DNA of 64,000 nucleotides from an uncultured Poribacteria bacterium (GTDB lineage Bacteria > Poribacteria > WGA-4E > WGA-3G), in the NCBI GenBank assembly GCA_951813565.1, contig OX638351.1, positions 1,184,001 through 1,248,000 of the forward strand, in the 5' to 3' direction. A program made the position numbers and the translations under genes. Of this stretch, positions 12,528-34,082 are shown one piece after another (the first letter of the stretch is position 1; each line of letters starts with the position of its first letter). The notes under the pieces were generated by a model. It did no database searches, had not been told where the DNA came from, and saw only the letters and a program-made list of their open reading frames with translations.

Positions 12528-12679
12528 ACCTAAGTTGCTACGGACAAGATTTCAAGCTTGTAGACCTTGCTTTTTACTGAAAAACAAGGATTTCCAGCTA
12601 ATTCTTATGCTTTCTTTTTTAAATCGGGGTTAGAAACCCCTCCTACAAGAGCATTCGCGATATAGGTAGCAACTTGGGT
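12528..12679. mobile_element. MITE-like element, copy 1 (TIR ACCTAAGTTGCTAC / GTAGCAACTTGGGT)
   Basis: Terminal inverted repeats; similar longer copy at 52465-52652; internal GGGGTTAGAAACCCCTCCTAC REP-like hairpin. Confidence 0.75.
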
Positions 12680-14127: not shown

Positions 14128-17100
14128 GTTTCTATTCCACATTGGTGCGATTAAAAGTGGTTCTCTGGCTTCAGCATGACAGACAGAACAAGCCGTTTCT
14201 ATTCCACATTGGTGCGATTAAAAGTTGTGGGTCGCCGTTGGCAATGCTATTGGTGTACCCGTGTTTCTATTCCACATTGGTGCGATTAAAAGGATTGGCC
14301 CCCTGTGACTTGTTCGGCGCCCCTGATCATGTTTCTATTCCACATTGGTGCGATTAAAAGTTTTCTGTTTTATCCCAAGGTGCTGCCAGTTGTTGATCTG
14401 TTTCTATTCCACATTGGTGCGATTAAAAGGCACGTGGGGTTGCTACACCAGAAATCAATTATGTCGTTTCTATTCCACATTGGTGCGATTAAAAGGTTGA
14501 AACTGCTGGCATAGTCAGATTACGTAACAAGAGTTTCTATTCCACATTGGTGCGATTAAAAGAATGCCAATTATGTCCAGTTCGGACTCTGGGTGGCAAT
14601 GTTTCTATTCCACATTGGTGCGATTAAAAGGAGTGCAAGAGGACTAACCAGACAGAACACATATTACTTGTTTCTATTCCACATTGGTGCGATTAAAAGA
14701 AGCCTCCACAGGTTCGGGGGTTATAGGGTTTTCAACGTTTCTATTCCACATTGGTGCGATTAAAAGAAGCCTCCACAGGTTCGGGGGTTATAGGGTTTTC
14801 AACGTTTCTATTCCACATTGGTGCGATTAAAAGTTTGCAGCAACAAGTACCTTATAAGAGTTGAAAGCGACGTTTCTATTCCACATTGGTGCGATTAAAA
14901 GATAAGTGGATGGTTGATCCTACATCTTCGGATCCCGTGTTTCTATTCCACATTGGTGCGATTAAAAGTAAGAAATTCTCCAAACCTACGAGTCAGGAAA
15001 CCCCGTTTCTATTCCACATTGGTGCGATTAAAAGGTTTCAGCACCACTCACATTAAAATAACCAGTAAGGGGTTTCTATTCCACATTGGTGCGATTAAAA
15101 GCGCGTTTGCACAAGAAAGAATTGTTCAGGATACATTAGAGAGTTTCTATTCCACATTGGTGCGATTAAAAGGTAATTAGAAAAACCCGAGCTGATTATT
15201 CCCCGAACAGTTTCTATTCCACATTGGTGCGATTAAAAGGTCTTGATATTGTCAAGCAAGTTGCAAGATATTCTCAGTTTCTATTCCACATTGGTGCGAT
15301 TAAAAGTTTAAAAAACCTGCCTATAGGGTATCGTGAAAATAGTTTCTATTCCACATTGGTGCGATTAAAAGTAGGTGTATTACACACTTTCTACGTTGCT
15401 TGGGGGTTTCTATTCCACATTGGTGCGATTAAAAGTATGTTTAGTTCTTGTTTATAATACTTTTATTTCACACGTTTCTATTCCACATTGGTGCGATTAA
15501 AAGTGGTGAAGATGTAATTATGCCTATCTATACAGATGATGTTTCTATTCCACATTGGTGCGATTAAAAGATTGAACAAGATTTTACAAGGTATACAAAA
15601 GTTGCCAGCGTTTCTATTCCACATTGGTGCGATTAAAAGAAAAAGCCGACAGTCTGTTAACCGTAAACTCAACAACCGTTTCTATTCCACATTGGTGCGA
15701 TTAAAAGTTGGTCTTTACAGGACATAGAAACTGTCTTTGAGTATGTTTCTATTCCACATTGGTGCGATTAAAAGGTTTATGAGAGGGGGAACATGTCCCC
15801 TTCAGACGCAGTTTCTATTCCACATTGGTGCGATTAAAAGAATATGACCCCGAAAAATTCACTTATATTGTTAGTAGTTTCTATTCCACATTGGTGCGAT
15901 TAAAAGGAGTTCCATTCTGGTGCATCACTCCGAATGAATTATAGTTTCTATTCCACATTGGTGCGATTAAAAGACAAACCTCTGCCCTAACATCCTTATA
16001 CGAGATCATCTCGTTTCTATTCCACATTGGTGCGATTAAAAGTCTACGTCTTATCTTGAACAAGTTATCCGTGCTAACTATGTTTCTATTCCACATTGGT
16101 GCGATTAAAAGAACCGATTGTAATTCCGATAGCACATTGTCCAAGCGGTTTCTATTCCACATTGGTGCGATTAAAAGTTATCGCGGCTCTCCCAGTCCGT
16201 ATTGGAGAGACTCTGGCGTTTCTATTCCACATTGGTGCGATTAAAAGTTTAGGCTTGAAAATCCGTGAGCGTGTTTGTAAGAGAGTTTCTATTCCACATT
16301 GGTGCGATTAAAAGGATCGTCTGTGATCCTTGTAGTCAACCTGATATTTGTTTCTATTCCACATTGGTGCGATTAAAAGGTCCAGTTCGGACTCTGGGTG
16401 GCGGTTGGAAATGCCATGTTTCTATTCCACATTGGTGCGATTAAAAGCCGAAAAGGATGACTTTGAATTTGCTAATCAACGAAGAGTTTCTATTCCACAT
16501 TGGTGCGATTAAAAGTTACTAAAGCAAAACTTAGAGTTTATATCTCCCAAGTTTCTATTCCACATTGGTGCGATTAAAAGTATATTCGCATCACAAAAGC
16601 AAAATGGAGCGTTAAGTTTCTATTCCACATTGGTGCGATTAAAAGTGCGGAGGGCCTCAAACTTTTATTTTTGGGTGAATGCTGTTTCTATTCCACATTG
16701 GTGCGATTAAAAGTGAGCGTCCCTGGATTCAACAACAAGGAGATATAAAAAGTTTCTATTCCACATTGGTGCGATTAAAAGGAAAAGTACATGAAGGAGG
16801 TGAAGAGGAAATGGCTGTTTCTATTCCACATTGGTGCGATTAAAAGGTGATGATCTTCGTCGTCATCAGGTAGGGCATGTTGCGTTTCTATTCCACATTG
16901 GTGCGATTAAAAGTGAAAAGAAAGTCCTCGCTGGTGGTTATGACTATACGTTTCTATTCCACATTGGTGCGATTAAAAGTGTTTAATCTTCATTACTCCA
17001 ATGAAGACTATTATATGTTTCTATTCCACATTGGTGCGATTAAAAGTCTGGCCGCTCAGGGCGCTGTTCTGATGCATGTGATGTTTCTATTCCACATTGG

Positions 17101-17310
17101 TGCGATTAAAAGACCAAACATCAACTATGTCCGCTTCGGCTTGTATGGTTTCTATTCCACATTGGTGCGATTAAAAGTGTTTAATCTTCATTACTCCAAT
17201 GAAGACTATTATATGTTTCTATTCCACATTGGTGCGATTAAAAGGGCTTTCCCGGACAGACAGCCAATCGGTCGCCATCAGTTTCTATTCCACATTGGTG
17301 CGATTAAAAG
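14128..17310 (-). CRISPR. CRISPR array, 48 identical 30-bp repeats and 47 spacers (about 35-41 nt)
   Basis: Repeat on + GTTTCTATTCCACATTGGTGCGATTAAAAG; transcribed form CTTTTAATCGCACCAATGTGGAATAGAAAC ends in an ATAGAAAC handle; leader on the cas2 side; counted by hand. Confidence 0.98.
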
Positions 17311-17566
17311 GCTATCCAAAAACTACATAAACATTATAATAAACCCTTACAGTTCCTGTCAAGTTAAAATTTATTTTTGTCAGATTTATGGGTGGTTGCC
17401 GTCAACCTCTAATCGTGCAAATTCTCTGGGAGGTTGACGGCAGTAGACGCATCAAGGGTTTGTCGGGGATTTTGCACGATTTTCGGTGCAGTATTGAGCC
17501 GCAAAATGAGAAAGATTTCGGAGGTCGACAGCAGAACATCAACACAGATTTACCGATGACGCCTTA
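17311..17566 (-). promoter_or_regulatory. CRISPR leader with sigma70 promoter and 13-bp inverted repeat
   Basis: Minus-strand TTGACA (17357-17362), 18 nt, TATAAT (17333-17338); IR TGCCGTCAACCTC (17397-17409) / GAGGTTGACGGCA (17430-17442). Confidence 0.8.
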
Positions 17567-17957: not shown

Positions 17958-18187
17958 CTACGATTTAGTGTGCTTCTACCACCACTGTCGCGAGCTGGAC
18001 AAGAAAATCGGGCTTAGAAAGCCCTCCCACAAGACAAAGTGCTTCTACCACCACTGTCGCGAGCTGGACAAGAAAATCGGGCTTAGAAAGCCCTCCCACA
18101 AGACAAAGTGCTTCTACCACCACTGTCGCGAGCTGGAGCTCGCTCCTACAAGAAGAGAATCTACGATTTAGTGTGTTTCTACCACCA
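17958..18187. repeat. 69-bp tandem repeat (2 full + 1 partial) of REP-like units, bounded by a 27-bp direct repeat overlapping the cas1 3' end
   Basis: Units start at 17970, 18039 and 18108; CTACGATTTAGTGTGYTTCTACCACCA at 17958-17984 and 18161-18187. Confidence 0.85.
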
Positions 18188-19980: not shown

Positions 19981-21117
19981 TTACGGATTTGCATTTACAT
20001 TGTTCCTGTGTCCATACCTACGAAGTATGAGCCTGCCGTTATCCGTTGAACAACTGACGCGGATTCCGCGGGCAACACGAAAAGTATAAACGTTAGCATG
20101 CCCTTGTAAAGCTTTAAATCGTAATCCTCCTCCTGTGAGTGCTGTTGTATCTCCGTTGTTAGCCTTAAGTTTATAGGCAACATGAGCTAATGTTTCCTGA
20201 AGTTTAATGCGTTCTTCAACATTGTTTTGATTGCTGAAGTCATCTTTGAAACTTGGCAAGTATTCCAATCGTGGGAATGGTAGAAGTTCTCCTGTCAAAA
20301 TATCTGCTTTTGTCCGATTCCAAATCAGGTTTCCCCACGCGGACAACCATGCAACAGTTTTTCCGTTATTTGCTAGAGATTCAAGCAGTGTTTCTGGAAT
20401 ACCTTCAAGTTCTTCAATAGGATAATCTGCGTCAGCCGCCATCATTGCAAATTTTGTCCGATGCTGTTGGATTACGGATGTATCAATCTTAATTGGGAGA
20501 CGTGGAATTCTAATCAGATCAGAAGATCGTTCAAAGATATATACAGTTTCATCGGCATAGAATGTGCCGAAAGTCTGCATGTAACCTTGCAGGCTTTTGA
20601 AGCCACCAACAAGATTAAATATGACACGATAACCCGCATCAGGCCGCCACGGGACGTTATCCTCCAACCACTTAATGAGCTCCTTTATACCATCGGTGAA
20701 AGAATCTGTATCTTTCGTCGATAAACCTTTAGGTGTTACAATAGATACGCTACACCCTTTATCTTGCAGAAACTCAGAAATCAGTTTACCTGTTGTTTCT
20801 CCTTGTGCGGTGTCGGTGCAGATAAGATAGTGTTGATCTTTACTGTTTTCAGGTAACCGACCTTCGTAGATACCATAAACACCATTTAATTCTGCACTTG
20901 CCATTCGGTTTGTATTTACATCATTTTCCTGGAGTTTTTTATGTGCGCGTTCAGCGAGTTTTGTAATAACATCTTGAGCCTTAGCTTCTAATTCATCATT
21001 TTTAAGATTTGCTGATTCCACAAGTATTTTTGCCCAATCTCTTGCTTCGTCCGGATCTTTTCTATTGATGGAATTTGTGAGGATACTTGTTCCAACGGTT
21101 GATACGATAAAACGCAT
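19981..21117 (-). CDS. cami1: CARF (APE2256/SSO1393-type) + C-terminal RelE-like toxin; Cami1-like type III effector
   Basis: STVGTS N-terminus, SAELNG, TDTAQG and FNLVGGFK (CARF); C-terminus LEYLPSFKDD...YTFRVARGIRVSC...LILRRYGHRNNV (RelE-like). Confidence 0.75.
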   Translation of the reverse strand: MRFIVSTVGTSILTNSINRKDPDEARDWAKILVESANLKNDELEAKAQDVITKLAERAHKKLQENDVNTNRMASAELNGVYGIYEGRLPENSKDQHYLICTDTAQGETTGKLISEFLQDKGCSVSIVTPKGLSTKDTDSFTDGIKELIKWLEDNVPWRPDAGYRVIFNLVGGFKSLQGYMQTFGTFYADETVYIFERSSDLIRIPRLPIKIDTSVIQQHRTKFAMMAADADYPIEELEGIPETLLESLANNGKTVAWLSAWGNLIWNRTKADILTGELLPFPRLEYLPSFKDDFSNQNNVEERIKLQETLAHVAYKLKANNGDTTALTGGGLRFKALQGHANVYTFRVARGIRVSCSTDNGRLILRRYGHRNNVNANP

Positions 21118-21144: not shown

Positions 21145-22317
21145 TCAAGAGGCGTCAATTGGTGATATTTTGACCCAACCGAGTGGTGTGACAGGGTTAT
21201 CTCTACGGTATAAAATGCGGCGGGTTTTTGGGAATTCACGAGTATCATAGGGTTGTCGTTGATTAGAACGACTCCTACCTAACCGATACCGTTCTCGTAA
21301 CTCCATCACGTCTATAGGTGCATCTTCTCCTTGCGTAAACGATGCGGTAACAGTGTTAGAAAGGTATCCTGCGCCCCACCCGATTTGCAGCATAAACGCA
21401 TCGTCAGCCAGTCTATTGTTTAAACCCATCAGTTGTTCATATAGGTTAGCGATTTCTGGATTATTGTAGTCATCATAGAACTTTCGTTCCACTTCCATAA
21501 GTATTTGCGTCTCCTCGTTACAAACTTCAGCAATTTCTTGGAGTATATTTTTTTGTGTCTTATCAAAATTGAGTTGTTTTTTCTCCCTTTCTCTAAAAAG
21601 CAGGTCATCAATCTTGATGGAAAAACTCAAAGACTTCACACCCTGAATTACCTCTACAAAGTTTTTATATTCTGTGTTGTCCTCAACCTTCTGTTCAAGT
21701 TGATTGTTTTGATTGAGTGTAACCGTCCATGCAGTCTCGATTGCAAGTGCGTCCCACTCAAGCGGTTCAGTATCGCTTACTTGTAATGCGCGAAGCAGAT
21801 CATGGGTAGGGTCTTTCCCAAACGCCAGTTTTTCTATCTGTTGGGCAGGATTTTCTTGTCTACGTCTCGGTGGCGTGCCTTTTTCAATTTCTCTGTTCAG
21901 ATGTTCCGAACTGTCGTTATAGAGTTTTTCATTTTCAGCATTGTTTATTAGATCCGATAACAACGCAGTGCGGAGTGCACCTTTGATACTGCTACCGGGA
22001 ATATAGGGACGGTTGCCTACGGATTTGATAGCTTCTCGTATGTCAGTTGTTTCTGGGCTTTGGGCGCAAAGGATATTATAAGTGGAAAGGTCCGCTGCAT
22101 CCATGTTGTGCCGTGAGAAGTAATCGCTCCAACGGAAATCGCGCTGCGACATTTCGGAGGTCAATGCGTTTATATCAGTGCTTGGATGCGCTAATACTTT
22201 GTCCAGGTCAATATGATACCACCTGCTGTTAGCATAATAGCCATCAATATGATTCAACGTTTCGCCTGTGCCGATGTGGACTGGGGTGAGTGTTTCAAGT
22301 TTGTATTTTTGTTTCAT
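21145..22317 (-). CDS. csm5: Type III-A RAMP Csm5
   Basis: TLTPVHIGTG, PYIPGSSIKGALRTA, LQIGWGAG and PLGWVK motifs. Confidence 0.93.
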   Translation of the reverse strand: MKQKYKLETLTPVHIGTGETLNHIDGYYANSRWYHIDLDKVLAHPSTDINALTSEMSQRDFRWSDYFSRHNMDAADLSTYNILCAQSPETTDIREAIKSVGNRPYIPGSSIKGALRTALLSDLINNAENEKLYNDSSEHLNREIEKGTPPRRRQENPAQQIEKLAFGKDPTHDLLRALQVSDTEPLEWDALAIETAWTVTLNQNNQLEQKVEDNTEYKNFVEVIQGVKSLSFSIKIDDLLFREREKKQLNFDKTQKNILQEIAEVCNEETQILMEVERKFYDDYNNPEIANLYEQLMGLNNRLADDAFMLQIGWGAGYLSNTVTASFTQGEDAPIDVMELRERYRLGRSRSNQRQPYDTREFPKTRRILYRRDNPVTPLGWVKISPIDAS

Positions 22318-22337
22318 TATTGAGGTTTTCTCCTACA

Positions 22338-23393
22338 TTATCGGGAATCGGAGTTCCCTCCTACTTTGATGCCGACCTGCCACGCGTAGCCATAGCGATA
22401 GACGTGATGCGGGTATTCCTTCGGTGTTAAATCTACCAACCTGCCAACGAGTTTGTCAGATGAATTTAAAACTGAACCTTCTGCGAACATATTGACCTTT
22501 TTCCTCTTTTTGTGTGTGCCAGTTGCCCCCACCCATCCTGTTAATGGGTTTAGGTTGTAGGCGATATCACCTTTGAGGAGATGCTCAAGTTGCTCCGATG
22601 ATTTGGGGCATATCGGTGAAAGTGTGACAAATTGCGTGCTGTGTTCCGCTGTCGATATTTCAAGATCATGCGCTGGGCAAAACTCAAACTGCCCGTAACC
22701 TGCGTTGCGTTCACCACCGATTCCGTTGTCGCCAAGCACTCGGAGTAGCGTTTCTACTTTCTGTTTTGTTGCATCAGAGTCAAATTTCGCTGCGAACCAG
22801 AGTCCGCAGTTTGTATTGAATTGGACGGTTTGGACGTGCCATATTTCGGAGCCTGAATTTTGCGCACCGATGGTAACGCGCGGGCGTGTGGTAGTCTCCC
22901 AAATGATTGGCGTATTATCCATCACCTTATTTAGTTGATCTTTTTCATCAGCACTTATCCAAACATTTTCACCGTTGATCAGATTGTCTCTGTCAAAATC
23001 AGGCGATTGATCGGAGATAATGTTTTGAAAAATAGATTTGGAAATGAACCGGACCTTTTTGATTTTTTTCTTAGATTTGTCTGGGACATTTTCATTTCCA
23101 CGAAAAGTCAAAGGTTTCGGAAAGAGGTAGATGTTATCTGCATACGGAAACGCAGAGGTTAACATAAAAGGTAACGTCTCGCTATCTTCTTTGTATCGTT
23201 CAAGAGACTTTTTGAGACTGTCGGTGTCGTAAAAGGTTGACCACGTTTGGCAGATTGCAGAAAAGAGCGTATCTGCTGGGATGTAGGTCTCGGTTTTCTC
23301 TAAGCCGAGGCTGCCTGTTTGTGCTGCACCTGTGGCGCGCCCGAGGTGTAGTTGTGTTTTGAACCTTAAGCGATAGACGGTATAATCTTCCAT
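22338..23393 (-). CDS. csm4: Type III-A RAMP Csm4
   Basis: IPADTLFSA, LTSAFPY, GIGGERNAGYGQF, MFAEGS and HHVYRYG motifs. Confidence 0.93.
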   Translation of the reverse strand: MEDYTVYRLRFKTQLHLGRATGAAQTGSLGLEKTETYIPADTLFSAICQTWSTFYDTDSLKKSLERYKEDSETLPFMLTSAFPYADNIYLFPKPLTFRGNENVPDKSKKKIKKVRFISKSIFQNIISDQSPDFDRDNLINGENVWISADEKDQLNKVMDNTPIIWETTTRPRVTIGAQNSGSEIWHVQTVQFNTNCGLWFAAKFDSDATKQKVETLLRVLGDNGIGGERNAGYGQFEFCPAHDLEISTAEHSTQFVTLSPICPKSSEQLEHLLKGDIAYNLNPLTGWVGATGTHKKRKKVNMFAEGSVLNSSDKLVGRLVDLTPKEYPHHVYRYGYAWQVGIKVGGNSDSR

Positions 23394-23401
23394 AATCGCA
23401 C

Positions 23402-24232
23402 CTATTTCCCGTTAATTGCTTTCAAAATTGTAGTTTTATAGTCCAATTTGCGTAGGGTTGCAATATCGGTGTTTTCATCTCCGATAGGGGTAAGGGTAAC
23501 GTTTGGGTCTTCATAACATTCACGCGATTTGAAGGTCATGGTTAGGTTCTCAAATGCTATTTGCCCAGAACCGCGGGAACCGGAGCCGCCGAGGTAGTCA
23601 TCTTGAAGCAGTTCCATACCTTTTAGGACGGTGTCGAAAAGTTTGAGTTCGTCTTGAAGTTGATTGTCATGATCGCTGCCGTGCAGTGTATAGAGACTGT
23701 GGGCTACTTGAAATGGTCCGAATATTGCGCCTGCAGGGACCCGTTCCTGTTGACGTGGTGTAGCGGCAGAGGTAATTCGGTCAATTGCTACTTCTGTCTT
23801 AATTTCGGTGAAGTCGGTATCGGTGTCGACTCTGTCCAGTACCGCCAGTGATTCGTCGGTTAAAAAGGTGTCTCGGACGATCACACGTGTCGGCATTGTT
23901 TTCCCTCTTAATTGTTGTATTGGTGCAACACCGAAAACTTGACAAACTGGGCATATATTATATTCTGCTGGTGTTTTGCACTCGTGAACTTGGACATCTC
24001 TACCGACAGACTTATTCAAATCCTTCTCGAAGTGCCGGTCAAGTAAACCTCGCATCTTTCCACGTAAGGACGAACCGGGGATGTAGGGTTGTCGGTTGAA
24101 GGCGTTTCGTATGATTGGATTATCAATACCACCGATGTCTAATTCACCTGTGTTGCCACCGATGTGTAATCCTGTTAAGGCGTTGATTGCACCTTTTAGA
24201 AAAATTTTTCCGTGTAGTTGAATGCTTGGCAT
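23402..24232 (-). CDS. csm3: Type III-A backbone RNase Csm3 (Cas7)
   Basis: TGLHIGG, IGGIDNP (catalytic Asp position intact), PYIPGSSLRGKMR, KTEVAIDR and YLGGSGSRGSG; ATG 24232 with AAGGAGG RBS. Confidence 0.95.
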   Translation of the reverse strand: MPSIQLHGKIFLKGAINALTGLHIGGNTGELDIGGIDNPIIRNAFNRQPYIPGSSLRGKMRGLLDRHFEKDLNKSVGRDVQVHECKTPAEYNICPVCQVFGVAPIQQLRGKTMPTRVIVRDTFLTDESLAVLDRVDTDTDFTEIKTEVAIDRITSAATPRQQERVPAGAIFGPFQVAHSLYTLHGSDHDNQLQDELKLFDTVLKGMELLQDDYLGGSGSRGSGQIAFENLTMTFKSRECYEDPNVTLTPIGDENTDIATLRKLDYKTTILKAINGK

Positions 24233-24242
24233 GTGTTCCTCC

Positions 24243-27132
<2,890 letters not shown>

Positions 27133-27200
27133 TGGGTGTTGTCCTTGTGGTATCAGGTGTTTTTCAATGGGTTATCTTATCATAACTTCAGTCAATATGA

Positions 27201-27300
27201 TGCTCTATTCCAAATTGGTTCGATTAAAAATGTACAAGAAATACAAGTTCCTTTAAGAGGAACAACAAAAGTTTTTATTCCAAATTGGTTCGATTATAAA
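27201..27300 (-). CRISPR. Degenerate two-repeat mini-array with one 40-nt spacer (crRNA-like regulatory RNA)
   Basis: 27271-27300 matches the main repeat 25/30 and 27201-27230 matches 24/30; spacer 27231-27270; guide 5'-UUUUGUUGUUCCUCUUAAAGGAACUUGUAUUUCUUGUACA. Confidence 0.85.
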
Positions 27301-27360
27301 GTGTACATCCAACATTATACATTTTGTACACTATTAAGTTTGGAATGTCAAGTTAAAAGT
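27301..27360 (-). promoter_or_regulatory. Leader-like promoter region of the mini-array (possibly also of cas10)
   Basis: TGTCAAGTTAAAA (27346-27358, minus-strand TTGACA) identical to main leader 17357-17369 and at nearly the same distance from the repeat; AACATTATA also shared. Confidence 0.65.
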
Positions 27361-27386
27361 CAGGAAATTCGGAAATATAAAGGTAG

Positions 27387-27408
27387 GGCGAGGCAAAGGT
27401 GCCTCGCC
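27387..27408 (-). terminator. GC-rich hairpin (terminator or REP-like) after the 59-aa ORF
   Basis: GGCGAGGCA-AAGG-TGCCTCGCC perfect 9-bp stem, 11 nt past the stop codon. Confidence 0.55.
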
Positions 27409-27419
27409 AATTCAGTGGG

Positions 27420-27599
27420 TTAATTGTTTGGAAAACTTTTGATGTTTTTCTTACAGTTCTTTGTAATTCTTTTTATCTCATTTTTCTCATTGTACTTGCT
27501 GGTGTCTTTCGACTCATCTCGAAAAAACGAGAAGAAAAATCCGAAATGGATTTTTACCTTCCTGTTCGGTTGTAAGCGAAATTCTGAATAGAATTTCAT
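27420..27599 (-). CDS. Unannotated 59-aa basic small protein; candidate CRISPR-repressed toxin or regulator
   Basis: MKFYSEFRLQPNRKVKIHFGFFFSFFRDESKDTSKYNEKNEIKRITKNCKKNIKSFPNN; strong SD AAGAAAGGAGG; absent from the ORF track, whose shortest entries are 60 aa. Confidence 0.55.
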   Translation of the reverse strand: MKFYSEFRLQPNRKVKIHFGFFFSFFRDESKDTSKYNEKNEIKRITKNCKKNIKSFPNN

Positions 27600-27721
27600 G
27601 ATATCTGCCTCCTTTCTTCATAAAATTTAACATTTATCTCCTTTCTTGTTTGACATGAGTCCACAGTAGAATACTTTCCTTAAACTTGTGAAACATCTTG
27701 TCGTGATTTATTCTAATGATA

Positions 27722-27738
27722 TGCAAAATCTATGCCAA
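27722..27738 (-). promoter_or_regulatory. Sigma54 (-24/-12) promoter upstream of the small ORF(s)
   Basis: Minus strand TTGGCATAGATTTTGCA fits YTGGCACGRNNNTTGCW with exact spacing. Confidence 0.6.
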
Positions 27739-27855
27739 TAATTTCGGTAGAAATTATATGGTTATCTCCTTTTTGCTGTGCCAAATTGACATTTTTATCG
27801 CAACTTCATAAAACAACAAGGTCAATTCGGCACATTTGGAGCGTTTAACGTTATA

Positions 27856-30189
27856 CTATAAAACGTTCGGATTATATTCGTCTAATATCAGACCAAGTGT
27901 ATTATCGTAGCGAACGTTGATGAAATACTGATTTATACGTTCATTTTCGTTGATTTGCCCATCCTTATATAGTTTTGCAAATTGGCTGTAACTAATTTGT
28001 GCGATGTATGCCCTCGCTTCATAATACTTGCGAGCATCTGTGTCGGATAAAAATTCTTGTTCGTAGCACGTTGGCACAACCTCAACGCTTTTAAAGAGTT
28101 CGTTAAACTCTTTACGTCCTTTAGCATCTTCAATGAACGGGACGATGTCTTGTAGGTGCCGTTCAAACAGTTGTTTTGCTCTATTAAACTTATCATTTTC
28201 TTTTTCATCATACCCTTCACAATAAACATTTTCTATAAGGACTTGGATTTTTGACTCCTTGAGTGTGTCATTAACTACAGATGCGAAAGCGTTTATAGTG
28301 CGTTCAACTTTCTCTGTGGAATAGATGTATTTATCGCTTTTCCCACCCTCTTTGCATATATGGACATCACAGATTCCTTTCTTGCCTTTTCTGTTGATAC
28401 GACCAAAACGTTGGATGAGTGCATCTATCGGTGCAGGTTCAGTAAAGAGACAATCAAAATCAATGTCAAGTGATACCTCAACGGCTTGTGTGCCGACAAG
28501 GAGATCGGCGTTTTCAAGTTCTCCTTCTATCCTTTCCCGATCTTTAAGGATAAATCGGCTGTGAAGGAGTTTGGCATTATCGGCTCCATGCTGCAATTCC
28601 TGAAACACATCTTGTGCCTGCTTGACAGTATTACAGACAACCATAACGCTATCTCCTTGGTTCAGTTTATCCTTTATTTTCGGAATAGCATCGGGGATAT
28701 TTCCATCAAGCAGCTTGACACGGTGCCGTGTGAATTTGTCCCTATCTTCTGGTGCCATGTCAACTGGTATGAATTCCCCGATTGCCTTGATAATCATATC
28801 TGTAAGAAACTGGGGCATTGTAGCAGTCATAATGCAGAACTTTGCATTGTAATCTTCACGGAGTTTCTTTATCATTGTCAAAATAAGCGCGGTTGTGTGC
28901 GGATCATAAGCATGGATTTCGTCAAAGATGAAAAGTCCATGAGACATCTCTGCCATCTGCATTTCAAAACCGCGTATACCGAAAAATGCTTTGAGGAGTT
29001 GAAAGGGCGTTAGCACCTTGTAAGGACGACAAATTTTTTTCGTTAGATCTCTTTCGTCTTGAGCACGTTTTTGCCTAACTAATTTTTCGGCAGATTCATG
29101 ATCACGCCCCTGATCAATGAAAGCTTGATATATGGCTTGATATTTGGCAGCATTTTGAGGTGTATAGTCTTTATCAACGAGTGCTTGATACATGAAGTAG
29201 GTAGCCTTTCCATGCAACACACCTATTTTTTCGTCTGATACGAGTTTTTTCAATCTCTTATACATTGCGTTGATGCTTGCAGTATAGGGTAACACATAAA
29301 AGACACGGTTACCTTTTGTTTTGCATTGGTTTTTGTCTGACCAAAGCAGCGCAGCTTCCGTTTTACCTGAACCTGTCGGTGCTGATAGCATGAGCTGACC
29401 GTCGGTTTTCCCAGCATCCTCTTGAAAGGACTCCCATCCGTGAAATTGTCGTCCTCTTTGCTCAATGCTTTGTACAAGGGACGCTTCAAGTTTATCAAGG
29501 GCGGTTTGGATTTCGTTTTTGGCATTGACATTAGAAGCAAGATGATCGCAGGCAATCATGCATCCGCGCATCAGCATGCCGTAGGTGCAGTGTAAGGAGT
29601 TTAATTCACCGTCTTCAAAGTCGTTCAAATATGGGGCAAGAAATTCTCGGTAACCACTAATGAGTAGATCGGTTGAGGTAACGGGTGTCCATAAGCACGT
29701 TGTTGTAGGAAACCAACTATGAAACCAATGAGGGATCTGCTCCTGTATTTCCATCAAAGCATCCCAATTCGGTTCCAGTTCTGCAACATGCTTTTGCCAC
29801 TCTTGATAACCTTCTTCGTTTTCTGGAATGCATGGATACTTTTCCCACAGCGTCTCACTATCCTTATGGTGTGTTAAAATGGCAAGTGCAATTGCCTGTT
29901 TTGCCTCATCTGATATTTGAAGTGTTACCACAAATCCAGTGGAAAGGATTTCATGACGATAGTTCCACCGATCATCTCTATCGGTAAGTTGCTTTTGGAA
30001 ACCGGTTGCTGCTTTGCCGAAATCGTGAAGTGCGACAGCGTAAAAAAGATGTTCAAAGAAATTAGGTTCTCCTGCAACATCAGCTAAAAAAGGCATCCGT
30101 TCTCGTAGACTATTGTATACTTCAAGACAATTCTGTGTATGATCATGAAGTGATTCTTGTGGATCGCTTTTTGCTAATAGTGTGGACAT
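27856..30189 (-). CDS. cas3: Cas3 HD nuclease-helicase
   Basis: ALHDFGK, APTGSGKT, DEIH, MTAT, TQAVEVSLDID and QRFGRINR motifs. Confidence 0.96.
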   Translation of the reverse strand: MSTLLAKSDPQESLHDHTQNCLEVYNSLRERMPFLADVAGEPNFFEHLFYAVALHDFGKAATGFQKQLTDRDDRWNYRHEILSTGFVVTLQISDEAKQAIALAILTHHKDSETLWEKYPCIPENEEGYQEWQKHVAELEPNWDALMEIQEQIPHWFHSWFPTTTCLWTPVTSTDLLISGYREFLAPYLNDFEDGELNSLHCTYGMLMRGCMIACDHLASNVNAKNEIQTALDKLEASLVQSIEQRGRQFHGWESFQEDAGKTDGQLMLSAPTGSGKTEAALLWSDKNQCKTKGNRVFYVLPYTASINAMYKRLKKLVSDEKIGVLHGKATYFMYQALVDKDYTPQNAAKYQAIYQAFIDQGRDHESAEKLVRQKRAQDERDLTKKICRPYKVLTPFQLLKAFFGIRGFEMQMAEMSHGLFIFDEIHAYDPHTTALILTMIKKLREDYNAKFCIMTATMPQFLTDMIIKAIGEFIPVDMAPEDRDKFTRHRVKLLDGNIPDAIPKIKDKLNQGDSVMVVCNTVKQAQDVFQELQHGADNAKLLHSRFILKDRERIEGELENADLLVGTQAVEVSLDIDFDCLFTEPAPIDALIQRFGRINRKGKKGICDVHICKEGGKSDKYIYSTEKVERTINAFASVVNDTLKESKIQVLIENVYCEGYDEKENDKFNRAKQLFERHLQDIVPFIEDAKGRKEFNELFKSVEVVPTCYEQEFLSDTDARKYYEARAYIAQISYSQFAKLYKDGQINENERINQYFINVRYDNTLGLILDEYNPNVL

Positions 30190-30192
30190 GTC

Positions 30193-30828
30193 TTATTCTC
30201 CATGAATGCGTTGGTGCAAATAGACACCCCATTCCTTATCGGTATCGTGTAATACATCACCCTCATATTTTATTTCCTCTGTGATAAGACAATATGCACG
30301 TGTACCACACTGCCGACGCGGAATATCTGCTGTGAAATGCGTTGGTAATGCCTGCACCTGTCCGTGAAGTTGTTGGTCAGGAAACGGGAGTATTGTATCG
30401 CAATAAGTCGTTTCCGTTTTACGTTCTAATTCAACTTCCTCTATAGATTTCACCGTTGCTAAATCTGAGGAACGCCCCAACAGCAAGGGGTAATGTGGTC
30501 GTTCTAATGCATCCTTTAACCACATATCCGGGGTATAAAGATAGAGTTCTGGTTGCACAAGGAATTCGCGTCTGTTGACGTTTGATTTTGCATCTAACTT
30601 GCCTCCAAATTCATAGACGGTTTCTAAATCAACTGCTCTGCCTTTACTCTTAAAAACAAACCCTATTGCTGCATCATGCGGTGTAACCCAGTCACCTTTT
30701 GCAGCAGTCAAAAGCCCATAAAGTGCCGAAAGTGGTGGTAAGGGTAGTGTCGGCTGGAATCCGCTAATAAATAACGGATTCCGAAATGATGAAACCCATC
30801 CCGTAATGTGAACGCGTAGAACCTTCAT
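30193..30828 (-). CDS. cas5: Type I-B Cas5
   Basis: SSFRNP...TLPLPPLSALYGLL, LLLGRSSDLA. Confidence 0.92.
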   Translation of the reverse strand: MKVLRVHITGWVSSFRNPLFISGFQPTLPLPPLSALYGLLTAAKGDWVTPHDAAIGFVFKSKGRAVDLETVYEFGGKLDAKSNVNRREFLVQPELYLYTPDMWLKDALERPHYPLLLGRSSDLATVKSIEEVELERKTETTYCDTILPFPDQQLHGQVQALPTHFTADIPRRQCGTRAYCLITEEIKYEGDVLHDTDKEWGVYLHQRIHGE

Positions 30829-31856
30829 GGAATGTCTCCGATATGTGTTTCTAATTTTTGTGATAACATGGATATTACCTTATTTGGCGAATCGTAAACG
30901 ATTTCACATGGTAGGTTTGTGTTGTTTGCCAAACTCATTAGATCCTCATCTATTCCATCCATGAACCCGCTCCGTCTACCGATATAAATCGCATCACAAA
31001 ATCGGTCTGCGTAGTCGTCAATAACTTGGTTTAGTGCGTCTAAAGATAACTCTCCGACTTCATTTCGTTCTACCATTAAATTCATGAATGGGTGGTTTCC
31101 ACCGTCAAGGACTGTGAGAATAATCAGTTTAGGTGTAACATCGGTGAGGTGTGATGTCAATTTTGCCCCACCACTGAGTATAGGAAGTGCTTCAAGAGTT
31201 TGTTGACAACGTCTCACCCGAATCTCTTTTGGAAGCACCCACGGTGCCTTTTCGTCTTCCTGAGTGCCACCCGCATTTTGGATAGTCTCAACATAACTTG
31301 ATGAGATATTCTTATAGCCAGTCCTGTTAACATCAGAAAACGCACCCACTGCACTGAGATCTAATGAGAAAATACCTTGTAGGACACACGAATAAAATTG
31401 GTGTTCATACGGCACTGGATCACCTTCTTGCCGTGCCATCACACCGAAATCGTTTGTTGGAATTTGTGGTTCGATAGCAATAAGCGGTGAACACTTCAGT
31501 GGAGACAAGCGGGTTACCGTCAAGTTTACTCTTTTCTTACCTTGCATTTCGCTTTGAGCACGCATATAACCAAAGACATCGTCATCGTCATAAGTTACAG
31601 GGTCTGCAGCGGTAAATGCAATTTTTTTCTCTCTTTCTATAGGCGAATTTTTCCATTCATCAAATTCGTGTTTAAGGGTGGTGCGCCACCAGTTTCGCCA
31701 TGCTTGTCCGGAAACATAAGGATAGGTACTCCGTCCTTTTCTTAACGTTTTGACCTTTACTATGTTTTCTGTTCTTTCAGATGTGTCCTCACCTGCGTTG
31801 TTAAGTGCGGAATATGGTGCATCAATTAGGGTGAGTCCGATAAGGTGTTTAGACAT
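30825..31856 (-). CDS. cas7: Type I-B Cas7 (Cst2/DevR)
   Basis: SALNNAG, YPYVSGQAWR, DDDVFGYM and TRLSPL motifs. Confidence 0.92.
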   Translation of the reverse strand: MSKHLIGLTLIDAPYSALNNAGEDTSERTENIVKVKTLRKGRSTYPYVSGQAWRNWWRTTLKHEFDEWKNSPIEREKKIAFTAADPVTYDDDDVFGYMRAQSEMQGKKRVNLTVTRLSPLKCSPLIAIEPQIPTNDFGVMARQEGDPVPYEHQFYSCVLQGIFSLDLSAVGAFSDVNRTGYKNISSSYVETIQNAGGTQEDEKAPWVLPKEIRVRRCQQTLEALPILSGGAKLTSHLTDVTPKLIILTVLDGGNHPFMNLMVERNEVGELSLDALNQVIDDYADRFCDAIYIGRRSGFMDGIDEDLMSLANNTNLPCEIVYDSPNKVISMLSQKLETHIGDIP

Positions 31857-31858
31857 GA

Positions 31859-33250
31859 TTAGTCCTCCTCATTTGCTTCGGTTTCAGATGCATCGTCTGC
31901 ATCAGGTATATTATCTTCATCAAAATCAACAAAACCTTTATCCTGTAGCCAGTTGTGGAGTCGTTCATAAACCCGAAAAAGCAGTAAGTCGCGCGTCTCT
32001 CGCCACGGTGTTGCGCTAAAATCCTCGCTCTCTGGAAAGAGATATTCCACATAATCATCCAATGAAAAAAGCGGGTTTTGTGTGCCTTGTTTAATTCGTT
32101 CTCGGATAATGTATAGCAGGACAGTTCGGCATGCCTCATAACTTTTGGCACCTTCTAAGCGAGTAAGTCGTTTATTACTTCCAGATTCTTGGATACAATC
32201 TGCGATGAGATCCCCGACATGTTTTATTTTCTCAAGTCGTGTTTGTTCCATAGCTCTAACCTCCTTAAAGTAGAGAGATAACAATTCCCAATTCCCGCGC
32301 GGTTTTCTGTGTCGTCTATTTAAAAAGGATCCAAGAATTGAGATGTCTTGCAATAGATTTTCATATACTCGGTTTGGTCTGTTTTTGTAATCTTCCTCAG
32401 ATTTAACTTTATCCCAATTGACATAGTAACCACTTCGGACAATTTCCTGCCATACTTTATTAAACTTGCCCATATAAACAATACGTAAAAATTTAAATAC
32501 AGGTGCGGGCATGTAGAATATCTCAAGTTCAGGTTTGTCGTTGTAATTTCTGAAACAGTAAACCTGCATCGGTATATTCTCATCAGAGCGCATTTCCTGA
32601 TATTGTGTCATTTCCCGCGCCATATAGAACAGTCCATTGCGTGGATTGGCATAACCAGGGTTAAAACACCCCGTTATATCCTGTTGAAGGTGTTGCTTGC
32701 GAATATCCTCGATACATACCCTCGCCCAACTTTTCAGTGCCTTCCACGAATTCGAGTGGAGTGTAAGAAACTGGCCTCCAGTCGCCATGAATACTAATGG
32801 GGATAATTGAATAGCAAAAGCACAAGCCGAACAATAACCTGCTCCCTCAGTGAAGGCAGGAAAAAAATTGCGTAATAGGCCAGAGCCTGTTAAAGGTATG
32901 TCTTTTTTCAAAAGAAAATTGTTGGCATCACGTCTGCCGCATCCCATACAATCTCCAGTTTCGTTCAATTCGCACATCGTGTCTAAATAGTGTGTGCATT
33001 CTTCCTTGAGTAGTGCAACTCTATCACGCTTATTGTGAGAAGGATTAGTCAATACACTATTTGGAAAAATGCTGTGTAAATTTCCCCATCCAATCTTTGT
33101 TTGCATCATTGGCGCGACATCATTAACAACTTGCTTAAGGTCCGCTTTAGTAATCTGATCGGGTTGTACGGTGCGCCCCAACCATTCACAGATACCACAA
33201 ACACCTGCATCAACAAATGGATTTCCCATTAACTTTTCATAAATTGGCAT
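31859..33250 (-). CDS. cas8: Type I-B large subunit Cas8 (Cst1/Cas8a1-like, CxxC-CxxC)
   Basis: GNPFVDAG, IFPNS, CMGC and CSAC motifs; located between cas6 and cas7. Confidence 0.85.
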   Translation of the reverse strand: MPIYEKLMGNPFVDAGVCGICEWLGRTVQPDQITKADLKQVVNDVAPMMQTKIGWGNLHSIFPNSVLTNPSHNKRDRVALLKEECTHYLDTMCELNETGDCMGCGRRDANNFLLKKDIPLTGSGLLRNFFPAFTEGAGYCSACAFAIQLSPLVFMATGGQFLTLHSNSWKALKSWARVCIEDIRKQHLQQDITGCFNPGYANPRNGLFYMAREMTQYQEMRSDENIPMQVYCFRNYNDKPELEIFYMPAPVFKFLRIVYMGKFNKVWQEIVRSGYYVNWDKVKSEEDYKNRPNRVYENLLQDISILGSFLNRRHRKPRGNWELLSLYFKEVRAMEQTRLEKIKHVGDLIADCIQESGSNKRLTRLEGAKSYEACRTVLLYIIRERIKQGTQNPLFSLDDYVEYLFPESEDFSATPWRETRDLLLFRVYERLHNWLQDKGFVDFDEDNIPDADDASETEANEED

Positions 33251-33287
33251 TTCAAAAACCTCCTTTCAAAAATGTTATGTAAAGTTA

Positions 33288-33317
33288 ATCATAACGTAAG
33301 TAAATAACAATTGTCAA
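33288..33317 (-). promoter_or_regulatory. Internal sigma70 promoter in front of cas8
   Basis: Minus-strand TTGACA (33312-33317), 18 nt, TATGAT (33288-33293). Confidence 0.55.
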
Positions 33318-33329
33318 ATTAAAATAAAT

Positions 33330-34082
33330 CTAAACCTCTACCATCCCGAACCCTGCACTATTCTTATCGCCAAACCCGCATTCATAGCCTGTCTGTATCA
33401 ATGCGGGGCTGCCGGACACACGAAACGGACACAAAATCCCGCGTATCTTGATACCCTTGAAATCAACAAGCCGAGTGACGCGCCTCTGCTTCCTACGGAT
33501 ATAGCGTTCATCAAAACATAAGGACAATGTATCGTCTTGCGGGGTGCGTGCATGTATCGCCTCATGTTTGCGGATAAGGTTTTGACGGATGAGATCGGAG
33601 AGTTCAGGATCGTCTGGTAGGCAGTAGTGCATGCGGCGTTTACCATCGTTTTCACGCACAGCGGACATCACAATCGGAGAGAGGCATCGGAACTCCATCT
33701 CAGAGCGAAAACGCGGGAGACGCGGGATCGTCACATCCTTGATTTTGAGTTGGTGCGATCCGATGGATAATCTGCCTTCGGTTAGGAGTGTATCGGCAAA
33801 ATGGGATAAGAATTGTTCCATTGGGGAAGATACGAACCACGTCAAAGTAGACCGAAAATGTATCTGTTCGCCTAAGATACGTCTGCGTTCTGCCATCAGT
33901 TGAGAGAAGGTGAAAAGCTTGAACCGTTTTTCAGCGGCGTGATAACCTTCATCATGCAGAAAGCCAGCGTATTCAGGATTAGATTCTGCAAGGAATCGGT
34001 AAATCACTCCGACAAGGAGGTGGTTGTAGTTAATGGGTAGGGTAATGCCGTTGCCAACATCGGTAAGGATTTGTATTCGCAT
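33330..34082 (-). CDS. cas6: crRNA-processing endoribonuclease Cas6
   Basis: LPINYNH, FLHDEG, FKLFTFS and C-terminal G-loop GFGDKNSAGFGMV. Confidence 0.95.
   Translation of the reverse strand: MRIQILTDVGNGITLPINYNHLLVGVIYRFLAESNPEYAGFLHDEGYHAAEKRFKLFTFSQLMAERRRILGEQIHFRSTLTWFVSSPMEQFLSHFADTLLTEGRLSIGSHQLKIKDVTIPRLPRFRSEMEFRCLSPIVMSAVRENDGKRRMHYCLPDDPELSDLIRQNLIRKHEAIHARTPQDDTLSLCFDERYIRRKQRRVTRLVDFKGIKIRGILCPFRVSGSPALIQTGYECGFGDKNSAGFGMVEV

Follow-up and report, generated by a model that had tools for sequence, protein, structure and literature searches.

A conserved crRNA-like guide upstream of cas10 in Poribacteria and its putative silent targeting of a neighboring small-ORF mRNA by Csm

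Results and discussion

A composite CRISPR-Cas locus with a second, degenerate array

The window analyzed here, a stretch of 64,000 nt from the genome of an uncultured Poribacteria bacterium, carries on its minus strand a composite CRISPR-Cas locus, in which type I-B genes are followed, after a gap of 723 nt, by type III-A genes, then by the gene of a CARF protein, by cas4, cas1 and cas2, and finally by an array of 48 repeats (Table 1). The leader promoter of this main array is also on the minus strand, so that the array and the cas genes share the same reading direction. The locus has a single Cas6 gene, which is that of the I-B set.

Judging from its sequence, the III-A machinery looks intact. 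The cas10/csm1 product matches TIGR02578 with 558.7 bits, and the families of the Csm2, Csm3, Csm4 and Csm5 set (TIGR01870, TIGR02582, TIGR01903 and TIGR01899) were each found above their cut-off. Cas10 has an HD motif at residue 14 and a GGDD motif at residue 581, as expected of a type III-A system, and Csm3 has its catalytic Asp in a GGIDNP motif that we take, from the motif itself and from passages in the literature, to be the counterpart of SeCsm3 D32. With the HD and GGDD motifs of Cas10 and the Asp of Csm3 preserved, a self target that lacks protection should harm the host. In the Csm2 protein, the Csm2 domain is preceded by a fused cold-shock domain (PF00313, 2.2e-15) at the N-terminus; among the relatives described below, this fusion is also present in G001, and is absent from G003, G023 and G142.

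The CARF protein is presumed, from its family, to be an effector switched on by cOA. The sequence-only reading of this stretch had labeled it Cami1. The CARF part of the label agrees with the PF09651 match, whereas the RelE part is not confirmed: the PDB match to the 406-aa chains 8phj/8phb spans residues 71-270 only, and the C-terminal 110 aa (19984-20313, minus strand) gave no Pfam family at E-values up to 10, RelE/ParE included.

Within the main array, the spacers at 14563-14600 and 16380-16417 have a 23-nt core in common and differ at their ends, and two spacers are each present in duplicate (14700-14803; 16980-17214), which suggests either that one target was sampled repeatedly or that units of the array were duplicated. 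The common 23-mer gave nothing in IMG/VR and, in 40 genomes of the genus, only the array itself. The whole array found no protospacer in 50,697 GenBank phage records, and a search for the I-B PAM with the 47 spacers against their own genome returned only chance matches of 14-19 nt. GC-rich, REP-like palindromes ending with CTACAAGA occur across the window (for example at 12623, 18007, 19196, 38407, 49122 and 52596), and a 69-nt tandem of such elements (2.4 copies) lies between cas2 and cas1 (region 17970-18137). Outside the window, and far from the arrays, a lone third repeat-like sequence, CATCTAATCGCACCAATTTGGAATATGAAA (G000:C1:4216797-4216826, G000 being the genome of the window), has AAGGAGG and a short ORF within 10 nt downstream; it may be another stand-alone repeat unit.

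The 723-nt gap between the I-B and III-A genes holds a second array, a mini-array located directly upstream of cas10, with two degenerate repeats (psiR1 and psiR2) around a single 40-nt spacer (psiS). The final 8 nt of psiR1, ATAAAAAC (27278..27271), would be the 5' tag of a crRNA. They depart from the canonical sequence ATAGAAAC with which the main repeat ends when read on the minus strand, and the loading of such a guide by Csm is for this reason an assumption. The promoter-like site ahead of the mini-array has a TTTTAACTTGACA motif in common with the leader promoter of the main array; it is missing from the promoter scan because its second hexamer has a terminal A. No match to Rfam was found in the region 26900-28100 at E-values up to 1. 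The hairpin of psiS (27247-27263, minus strand), together with a U-rich tail, was flagged as terminator-like (z = -2.2); its 3' half corresponds to guide positions 20-24, which are conserved between loci and yet have the worst pairing with the target, and its stem is weaker in G001 and G023, with no compensatory change. We consider that the mini-array is probably a conserved gene for a crRNA-like guide, holding no immune memory.

The same gap contains a small ORF (P0001), with a ribosome-binding site and a promoter-like site ahead of it and a GC-rich hairpin after its stop. A 14-nt inverted repeat, TGTGCCAAATTGAC / GTCAATTCGGCACA (27777-27790 and 27821-27834), lies between the stop codon of cas3 and this promoter-like site. 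The stretch that contains it is conserved in G001, G009 and G013, and it may act as an operator or mark where the I-B operon ends.

Table 1. Coordinates of the features discussed, in the numbering of the window
Feature	Position	Strand	Details
Main CRISPR array	14128..17310	minus	48 repeats, 47 spacers
Main-array leader promoter	17362..17333	minus	consensus score 12/12; 22 nt ahead of the first repeat
CARF protein (Cas_APE2256)	19981..21117	minus	PF09651 at 1e-33; PDB matches to the APE2256 family
Type III-A effector genes	21145..27132	minus	cas10/csm1 27132..24850, csm2 24893..24243, csm3 24325..23402, csm4 23393..22338, csm5 22317..21145
psiR2, degenerate repeat	27201..27230	minus	24/30 identical to the main repeat
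psiS, conserved guide	27231..27270	minus	40 nt; internal hairpin GTTCC-N7-GGAAC
psiR1, degenerate repeat	27271..27300	minus	TTTATAATCGAACCAATTTGGAATAAAAAC; 25/30 identical to the main repeat
Promoter-like site ahead of the mini-array	27323..27351	minus	TTGACA-17-TACAAA, read directly
GC-rich hairpin past the small-ORF stop	27387..27408	minus	GGCGAGGCA-N4-UGCCUCGCC; terminator-like, weak U tract
Small ORF P0001	27420..27599	minus	59 aa + stop; conserved in 7 genomes
Anti-tag, 3' flank of the target in the small-ORF mRNA	27429..27436	minus	GUUUUCCA; complements tag positions -1 to -5
Protospacer-like target	27437..27476	minus	final small-ORF codons; paired to psiS positions 1-37
Ribosome-binding site AGGAGG	27608..27613	minus	8 nt ahead of the ATG
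Promoter-like site ahead of the small ORF	27710..27738	minus	TTGGCA-17-TAGAAT, 10/12; such sites are no commoner in the region than in shuffles
Type I-B genes	27856..34082	minus	cas6 34082..33330, cas8b1 33250..31859, cas7 31856..30825, cas5 30828..30193, cas3 30189..27856

The guide is complementary to the end of the small-ORF coding region

At its 3' end, the small ORF contains an inverted match to psiS, separated from the guide by 198 nt. With its flank, this target spans the last 13-14 codons, and the stop codon lies 6 nt past the flank. Since the guide shares the strand of the ORF and matches it in inverted orientation, it is the predicted small-ORF mRNA that is complementary to the guide; the target is thus found on the strand of the cas genes, in the predicted sense mRNA of an ORF provided with an AGGAGG site.

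Over the 40 positions, 27 are matched and 13 mismatched (6, 11, 12, 18, 21-24, 30, 36 and 38-40), the segment 19-24 being poorly paired. Ten of the mismatches fall within positions 1-36, where none of the six multiples of six is matched (hypergeometric P = 0.00011), and a register of every sixth position is that of Cas7-family backbones. Codon wobble was ruled out as the source of these periodic mismatches, as the sixth positions are second codon positions. With 27/40, the target is the best non-self match to psiS on both strands of the 5.43-Mb genome, tied with one other site. When the sixth positions are masked, it becomes the clear best genome-wide, with 27/34, followed by one site with 24 and ten with 23; this mask was applied post hoc, the pattern having already been noticed, and its register is fixed by the junction between tag and spacer.

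The sequence-only reading had stated that the flank of the target mimics the repeat at positions -5 to -1 (AAAAC), and this is directly read in the DNA: the plus strand at 27429-27436 is TGGAAAAC, to be compared with the psiR1 end given above, so that tag positions -1 to -5 would pair with the flank of the mRNA, as expected of a type III self target. The tag had been ascribed to the upstream repeat; the tag itself was right, whereas this repeat is not a member of the main array and belongs to the separate, degenerate mini-array before cas10. The tag positions that pair with the flank number four to five, not eight. AAAAC has a frequency of 0.0025 of positions in the window as in the genome, and of 0.0041 in the intergenic gap, which makes the flank match by itself an approximately 1-in-300 event at a fixed place.

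The module recurs in Poribacteria and its pairing covaries

The module made of small ORF, hairpin and mini-array is present in seven Poribacteria genomes, in addition to one metagenome contig identical to the window. Relatives were found by BLAST of the gap against 41 genomes, by a scan of the genus for the exact pattern, which occurs in 5/40 genomes, and by scanning two public collections. Exact matches amounted to 39 in genomes and 43 in metagenomes, of which only six and one, respectively, have the repeat core, the others being due to chance. Matches to the pattern with two mismatches in the genus proved to be in unrelated sequence and were discarded. Of 112 genomes of the family, 34 have a Cas10 orthologue, and six of these 34 carry the module.

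In every carrier, the best match to the carrier's own guide is an inverted site upstream, at a distance of 195-233 nt, or of 881 nt in G001 as a result of an inserted ISAs1 fragment. These target sites are all at the 3' end of a small ORF, 34-60 aa long; a GGAGG site is present at all seven small-ORF loci, and a hairpin follows the small ORF in the relatives as well, with a different sequence. The insertions of G001, an IS4 transposase gene between cas10 and csm2 (L011, 9146-10462) and the ISAs1 fragment between small ORF and mini-array (L011, 13180-13716), have left small ORF, guide and pairing intact.

In an alignment of the small proteins, the motifs HF-x-V-FFSF and KN-E...KKN-x-K-x-F are conserved. 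Strong matches to their profile are confined, in 176 genomes of the phylum, to the seven carriers, so that small ORF and mini-array always co-occur (7/7); a weak match in G045 is spurious, with internal stop codons and neither repeat nor guide nearby. Searched against 5.8 billion proteins, the profile gave eight matches, all unnamed. The small protein had no match in Pfam or in the ESM Atlas, and a comparison to PADLOC yielded nothing (best E-value 0.045, from one of the seven members). Its AlphaFold model, a beta-hairpin and a helix, is of low confidence (pLDDT 63). No family, annotation or feature of this low-confidence model indicates a toxin; it is by analogy with the systems compared below that the small protein is a candidate toxin or regulator.

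Pairing was compared position by position between the loci. At six of them, G013 being left out for a 2-nt deletion in its guide, the sixth positions within 1-36 are mismatched in 26 of 36 cells, and the other positions in 22 of 180. On the tag side, positions -2 to -5, which are those paired in solved non-cognate type III complexes, pair at all seven loci, and position -5 covaries, being A/A at four loci and G/G at three. Position -1 is paired at 4/7 loci, -6 at 1/7, -7 at 3/7 with one wobble in addition, and -8 at 1/7. Compensatory changes are found at spacer positions 3, 7, 17, 29, 31 and 32 too. For pair counting, six loci were used, G001 being omitted for its 680-nt insertion: in register, pairing reaches 75.4% of cells, versus 43-49% when the two sides are slid by 1-3 columns, 11 pairs have changed on both sides versus 0-3, and the covariation score was reached by none of 500 shuffles; all these counts overstate independence, since the seven loci are kin.

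Covariation alone is evidence only that pairing matters, and the pairing might involve no Cas protein at all. The two arms, which lie on one strand with about 200 nt between them, make up an imperfect inverted repeat and could correspond to a plain antisense RNA, to a hairpin formed over a long range within a read-through transcript, or simply to the relic left by a repeat-spacer unit that was duplicated in inverted orientation. We regard such explanations as very unlikely. A naked duplex explains neither the mismatches at every sixth position nor a pairing that stops at -5 and leaves -1 free; the guide is flanked by two repeat-like sequences that keep a Cas6-type core, and sits at cas10 in 6/7 loci; and no covariation would be expected of a relic across lineages that share only 62-79% identity in Cas10.

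Csm is the most likely effector

A Cas-dependent alternative is that the I-B Cascade is the executor, binding the DNA at 27437-27476 and blocking transcription without Cas3, in the manner of CreA and CreR. In the window's own genome, Cascade could load the same guide, as Cas6 and the repeat family are common to both systems; I-B genes adjoin the module in the window and in G119; and Cascade follows the same rule for every sixth position. The characterized CreTA and CreR cases, as published, all have type I or V-A effectors. In the corresponding passages of a preprint, composite I-B and type III loci are described as rich in mini-arrays for which either effector is possible, and both effectors were left open for a composite I-B/III-C locus (Shmakov et al. 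2023).

The gene content of the carriers speaks for Csm. The gene directly downstream of the mini-array is cas10 in 6/7 loci, while the I-B cas3 precedes the module in the window and G119 only, and the order in G023 is cas6, module, csm genes. Whole-genome family searches found Csm3 in six of the seven carriers and the I-B Cas7 in G000, G003 and G119, with a borderline match in G013. The same searches found no I-B Cas7 in G001 (97% complete), G023 (one contig, 92%) and G142 (one contig, 94%), all three of which carry the module and Csm; the single contig of G023 also gave no match to Cas8b1 and none above cut-off to the Cas3 core. The preference of the sequence-only reading for Csm over Cascade is strengthened by the adjacency of cas10 and by these three carriers. 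G013, in which the small ORF is intact and the guide has its 2-nt deletion, gave neither a Csm3 nor a Cas10 orthologue in an assembly that is 81% complete, which argues against a strict dependence of the small ORF on Csm.

The target itself is also ill suited to Cascade, as it is the 3' end of a coding region and not a promoter. The trinucleotide at the place of the PAM varies between AAC, AAA and AAT over the seven loci, and in the window it is AAC, identical to the repeat end. A PAM comprises 3 nt and is read as duplex DNA, so that Cascade leaves the conserved complementarity at -4 and -5, two positions that a PAM does not read and that covary with the tag, unexplained; nor does a PAM account for a tag that departs from the canonical sequence and has changed along with its target. 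Given a working PAM, pairing up to position 37 would moreover be expected to invite Cas3. Taken together, Cascade is in our opinion a very unlikely executor, and Csm is the one most likely to carry out a silent knockdown.

That the knockdown would be silent is predicted by the flank. According to the published passages on LdCsm, targets with or without an anti-tag are cut equally, in 6-nt steps, and the DNase is active on a mismatched flank only; one matched nucleotide in the flank is insufficient, and the shut-off grows gradually with the length of the anti-tag. In the case of the Cas10-Csm complex of S. epidermidis, RNA with an anti-tag is described as being cleaved at wild-type speed, with immunity lost. 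Csm structures show position -1 flipped by the Csm4 thumb and positions +12 and +18 by Csm3 thumbs (PMC10289348). Along with the pairing of -2 to -5 at all seven loci and the covariation of -5, these reports agree with what had been proposed from the flank of the window, namely that it should allow cutting by Csm3 without activation of Cas10.

A Csm-mediated cut could have another purpose than the control of the small protein. In an autoregulatory loop, the guide would cut a long leader transcript that runs from the promoter-like site at 27738..27710 across the small ORF and on towards cas10, and the abundance of Csm would feed back on csm expression, as CreR does, at the RNA level; the small ORF would then be a leader peptide or a minor player. 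In G009 (L004 1500-1800), a single psi repeat and cas10 come right after the upstream promoter region, and both small ORF and psiS are missing; this arrangement looks like a deletion of the module, and it follows from it that this promoter region can serve cas10. Autoregulation by CreR-type mini-arrays is described as known for types I and V-A. We therefore treat an RNA-level loop as a serious alternative, unlikely as it is on the following grounds. The GC-rich hairpin and the second promoter-like site separate the target from the mini-array, so that the small ORF and the mini-array look like separate units; cutting upstream of a terminator would not obviously alter the cas10 mRNA; and the N-terminal half of the small protein, which is outside the paired region, is conserved at the amino acid level, some of the changes being synonymous.

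A model for silent knockdown

The best explanation of the whole, to which we give a probability of about 0.6, is that a Csm-bound guide silently knocks down the small-ORF mRNA, in a safeguard akin to CreTA and CrePA. Cas6 would cut psiR1 and produce a guide made of the tag AUAAAAAC and about 35-37 nt of psiS, which the Csm complex would load. In the cell, this guide would pair with the last ~37 nt of the small-ORF coding region, to which it is complementary. Pairing would follow the rhythm of five paired positions and one flipped that is expected on a Csm3 backbone, a rhythm present both in the sequence of the window and in the covariation between loci. As the literature on anti-tags leads one to expect, the pairing of tag positions -2 to -5 with the 3' flank of the mRNA would keep the HD nuclease and the cyclase of Cas10 off, and Csm3 would still cut the mRNA at 6-nt intervals. 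Cut away from its stop codon and 3' hairpin, the mRNA would no longer give rise to the 59-aa protein. As long as Csm works, the candidate toxin would be off; were Csm to disappear or be inhibited, the small protein would be produced. Points that weigh against this model are the 13 mismatches in 40 positions, with the poorly paired segment 19-24, the non-canonical tag, and a flank that pairs with only four to five of the eight tag positions.

The purpose is the least certain part of this model. By analogy with CreTA and CrePA, the small protein may be a toxin that reports the loss or inhibition of Csm and, provided that Csm is the executor, we see about even chances for such a role. The pair formed by guide and small ORF looks like a built-in switch, for toxin control or for regulation. 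It is a more tentative proposal, held at somewhat less than even chances, that this would be the first natural type III counterpart of CreTA, in which Csm has been domesticated by a conserved guide against the mRNA of an adjacent toxin, Cas10 is silenced by a co-evolving tag and flank, and Csm becomes addictive or acts as an anti-CRISPR sensor.

Comparison with known systems

To our knowledge, CreTA, CrePA, CreR, tracr-L and scaRNA all rely on DNA-binding effectors that repress promoters. The arrangement found here looks like a type III, RNA-level variant of the known mini-array regulators. As in CreTA and CrePA (types I-B and I-F), a degenerate mini-array with a conserved spacer is located within the cas locus, and its guide is partly complementary to a neighboring gene. 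In the published accounts of these two systems, the neighbor is a small toxin gene, through which the effector is made indispensable, whereas toxicity is assumed here only by analogy. Cascade moreover acts there at the DNA level, on a promoter beside a functional PAM, and represses transcription; here, in contrast, the target is the 3' coding end of an mRNA, a tag-pairing flank takes the place of the PAM, and the likely partner is Csm.

Type I toxin-antitoxin systems associate a small protein gene and a strong ribosome-binding site with a neighboring complementary RNA, a layout similar to that of the module. Unlike in these systems, the antisense RNA is here framed by CRISPR repeats, and its pairing pattern fits a Cas7-family backbone.

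Regulatory mini-arrays are documented in the literature for types I, II and V-A. CreR and its like (types I and V-A) are also conserved mini-arrays with spacers matching their own cas locus, and the passages of the preprint that describe them mention neither an RNA-level mechanism nor tag/anti-tag pairing (Shmakov et al. 2023). In open-access text and in bioRxiv, we found no publication tying a mini-array, CreTA or CreR to Csm or to tag/anti-tag pairing.

The mechanism proposed for the module is closer to type III self-avoidance, as described for anti-tag or 'NTR' RNAs: pairing between tag and flank marks self and blocks Cas10, cutting by Csm3 continues, and the same would hold here. Self-avoidance is usually seen as a guard against antisense transcripts of the array, whereas it is apparently used here on a protein-coding mRNA and, unlike in plain self-avoidance, the tag and its target have changed in concert, away from the canonical tag sequence.

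If the model is true, type III effectors serve the control of host genes, and evolutionary covariation reveals which tag positions matter in vivo. The guide and its flank rule would then make up a compact, portable part for silent RNA knockdown, and the module could stabilize type III systems in engineered strains. A type III version of the mini-array regulators, acting on RNA, would face a difficulty foreign to the DNA-binding ones, as a self transcript, once bound, normally sets off cOA signaling and collateral nucleases. In an engineered type III-A knockdown, Woodside et al. (2022, PMC9297841) are reported to have picked a target in E. coli lpp for its flank, which pairs at -1 to -5 and at -8, a choice meant to allow cutting by Csm3 without setting off Csm6; the window has the same tag/flank pairing at -1 to -5. 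Theirs is a laboratory design with perfect spacers, whereas the present module is natural and conserved, and has periodic mismatches. The covarying tag and anti-tag would thus be a natural answer to the alarm raised by a self transcript, in parallel to the device by which engineers have made knockdown with Csm safe.
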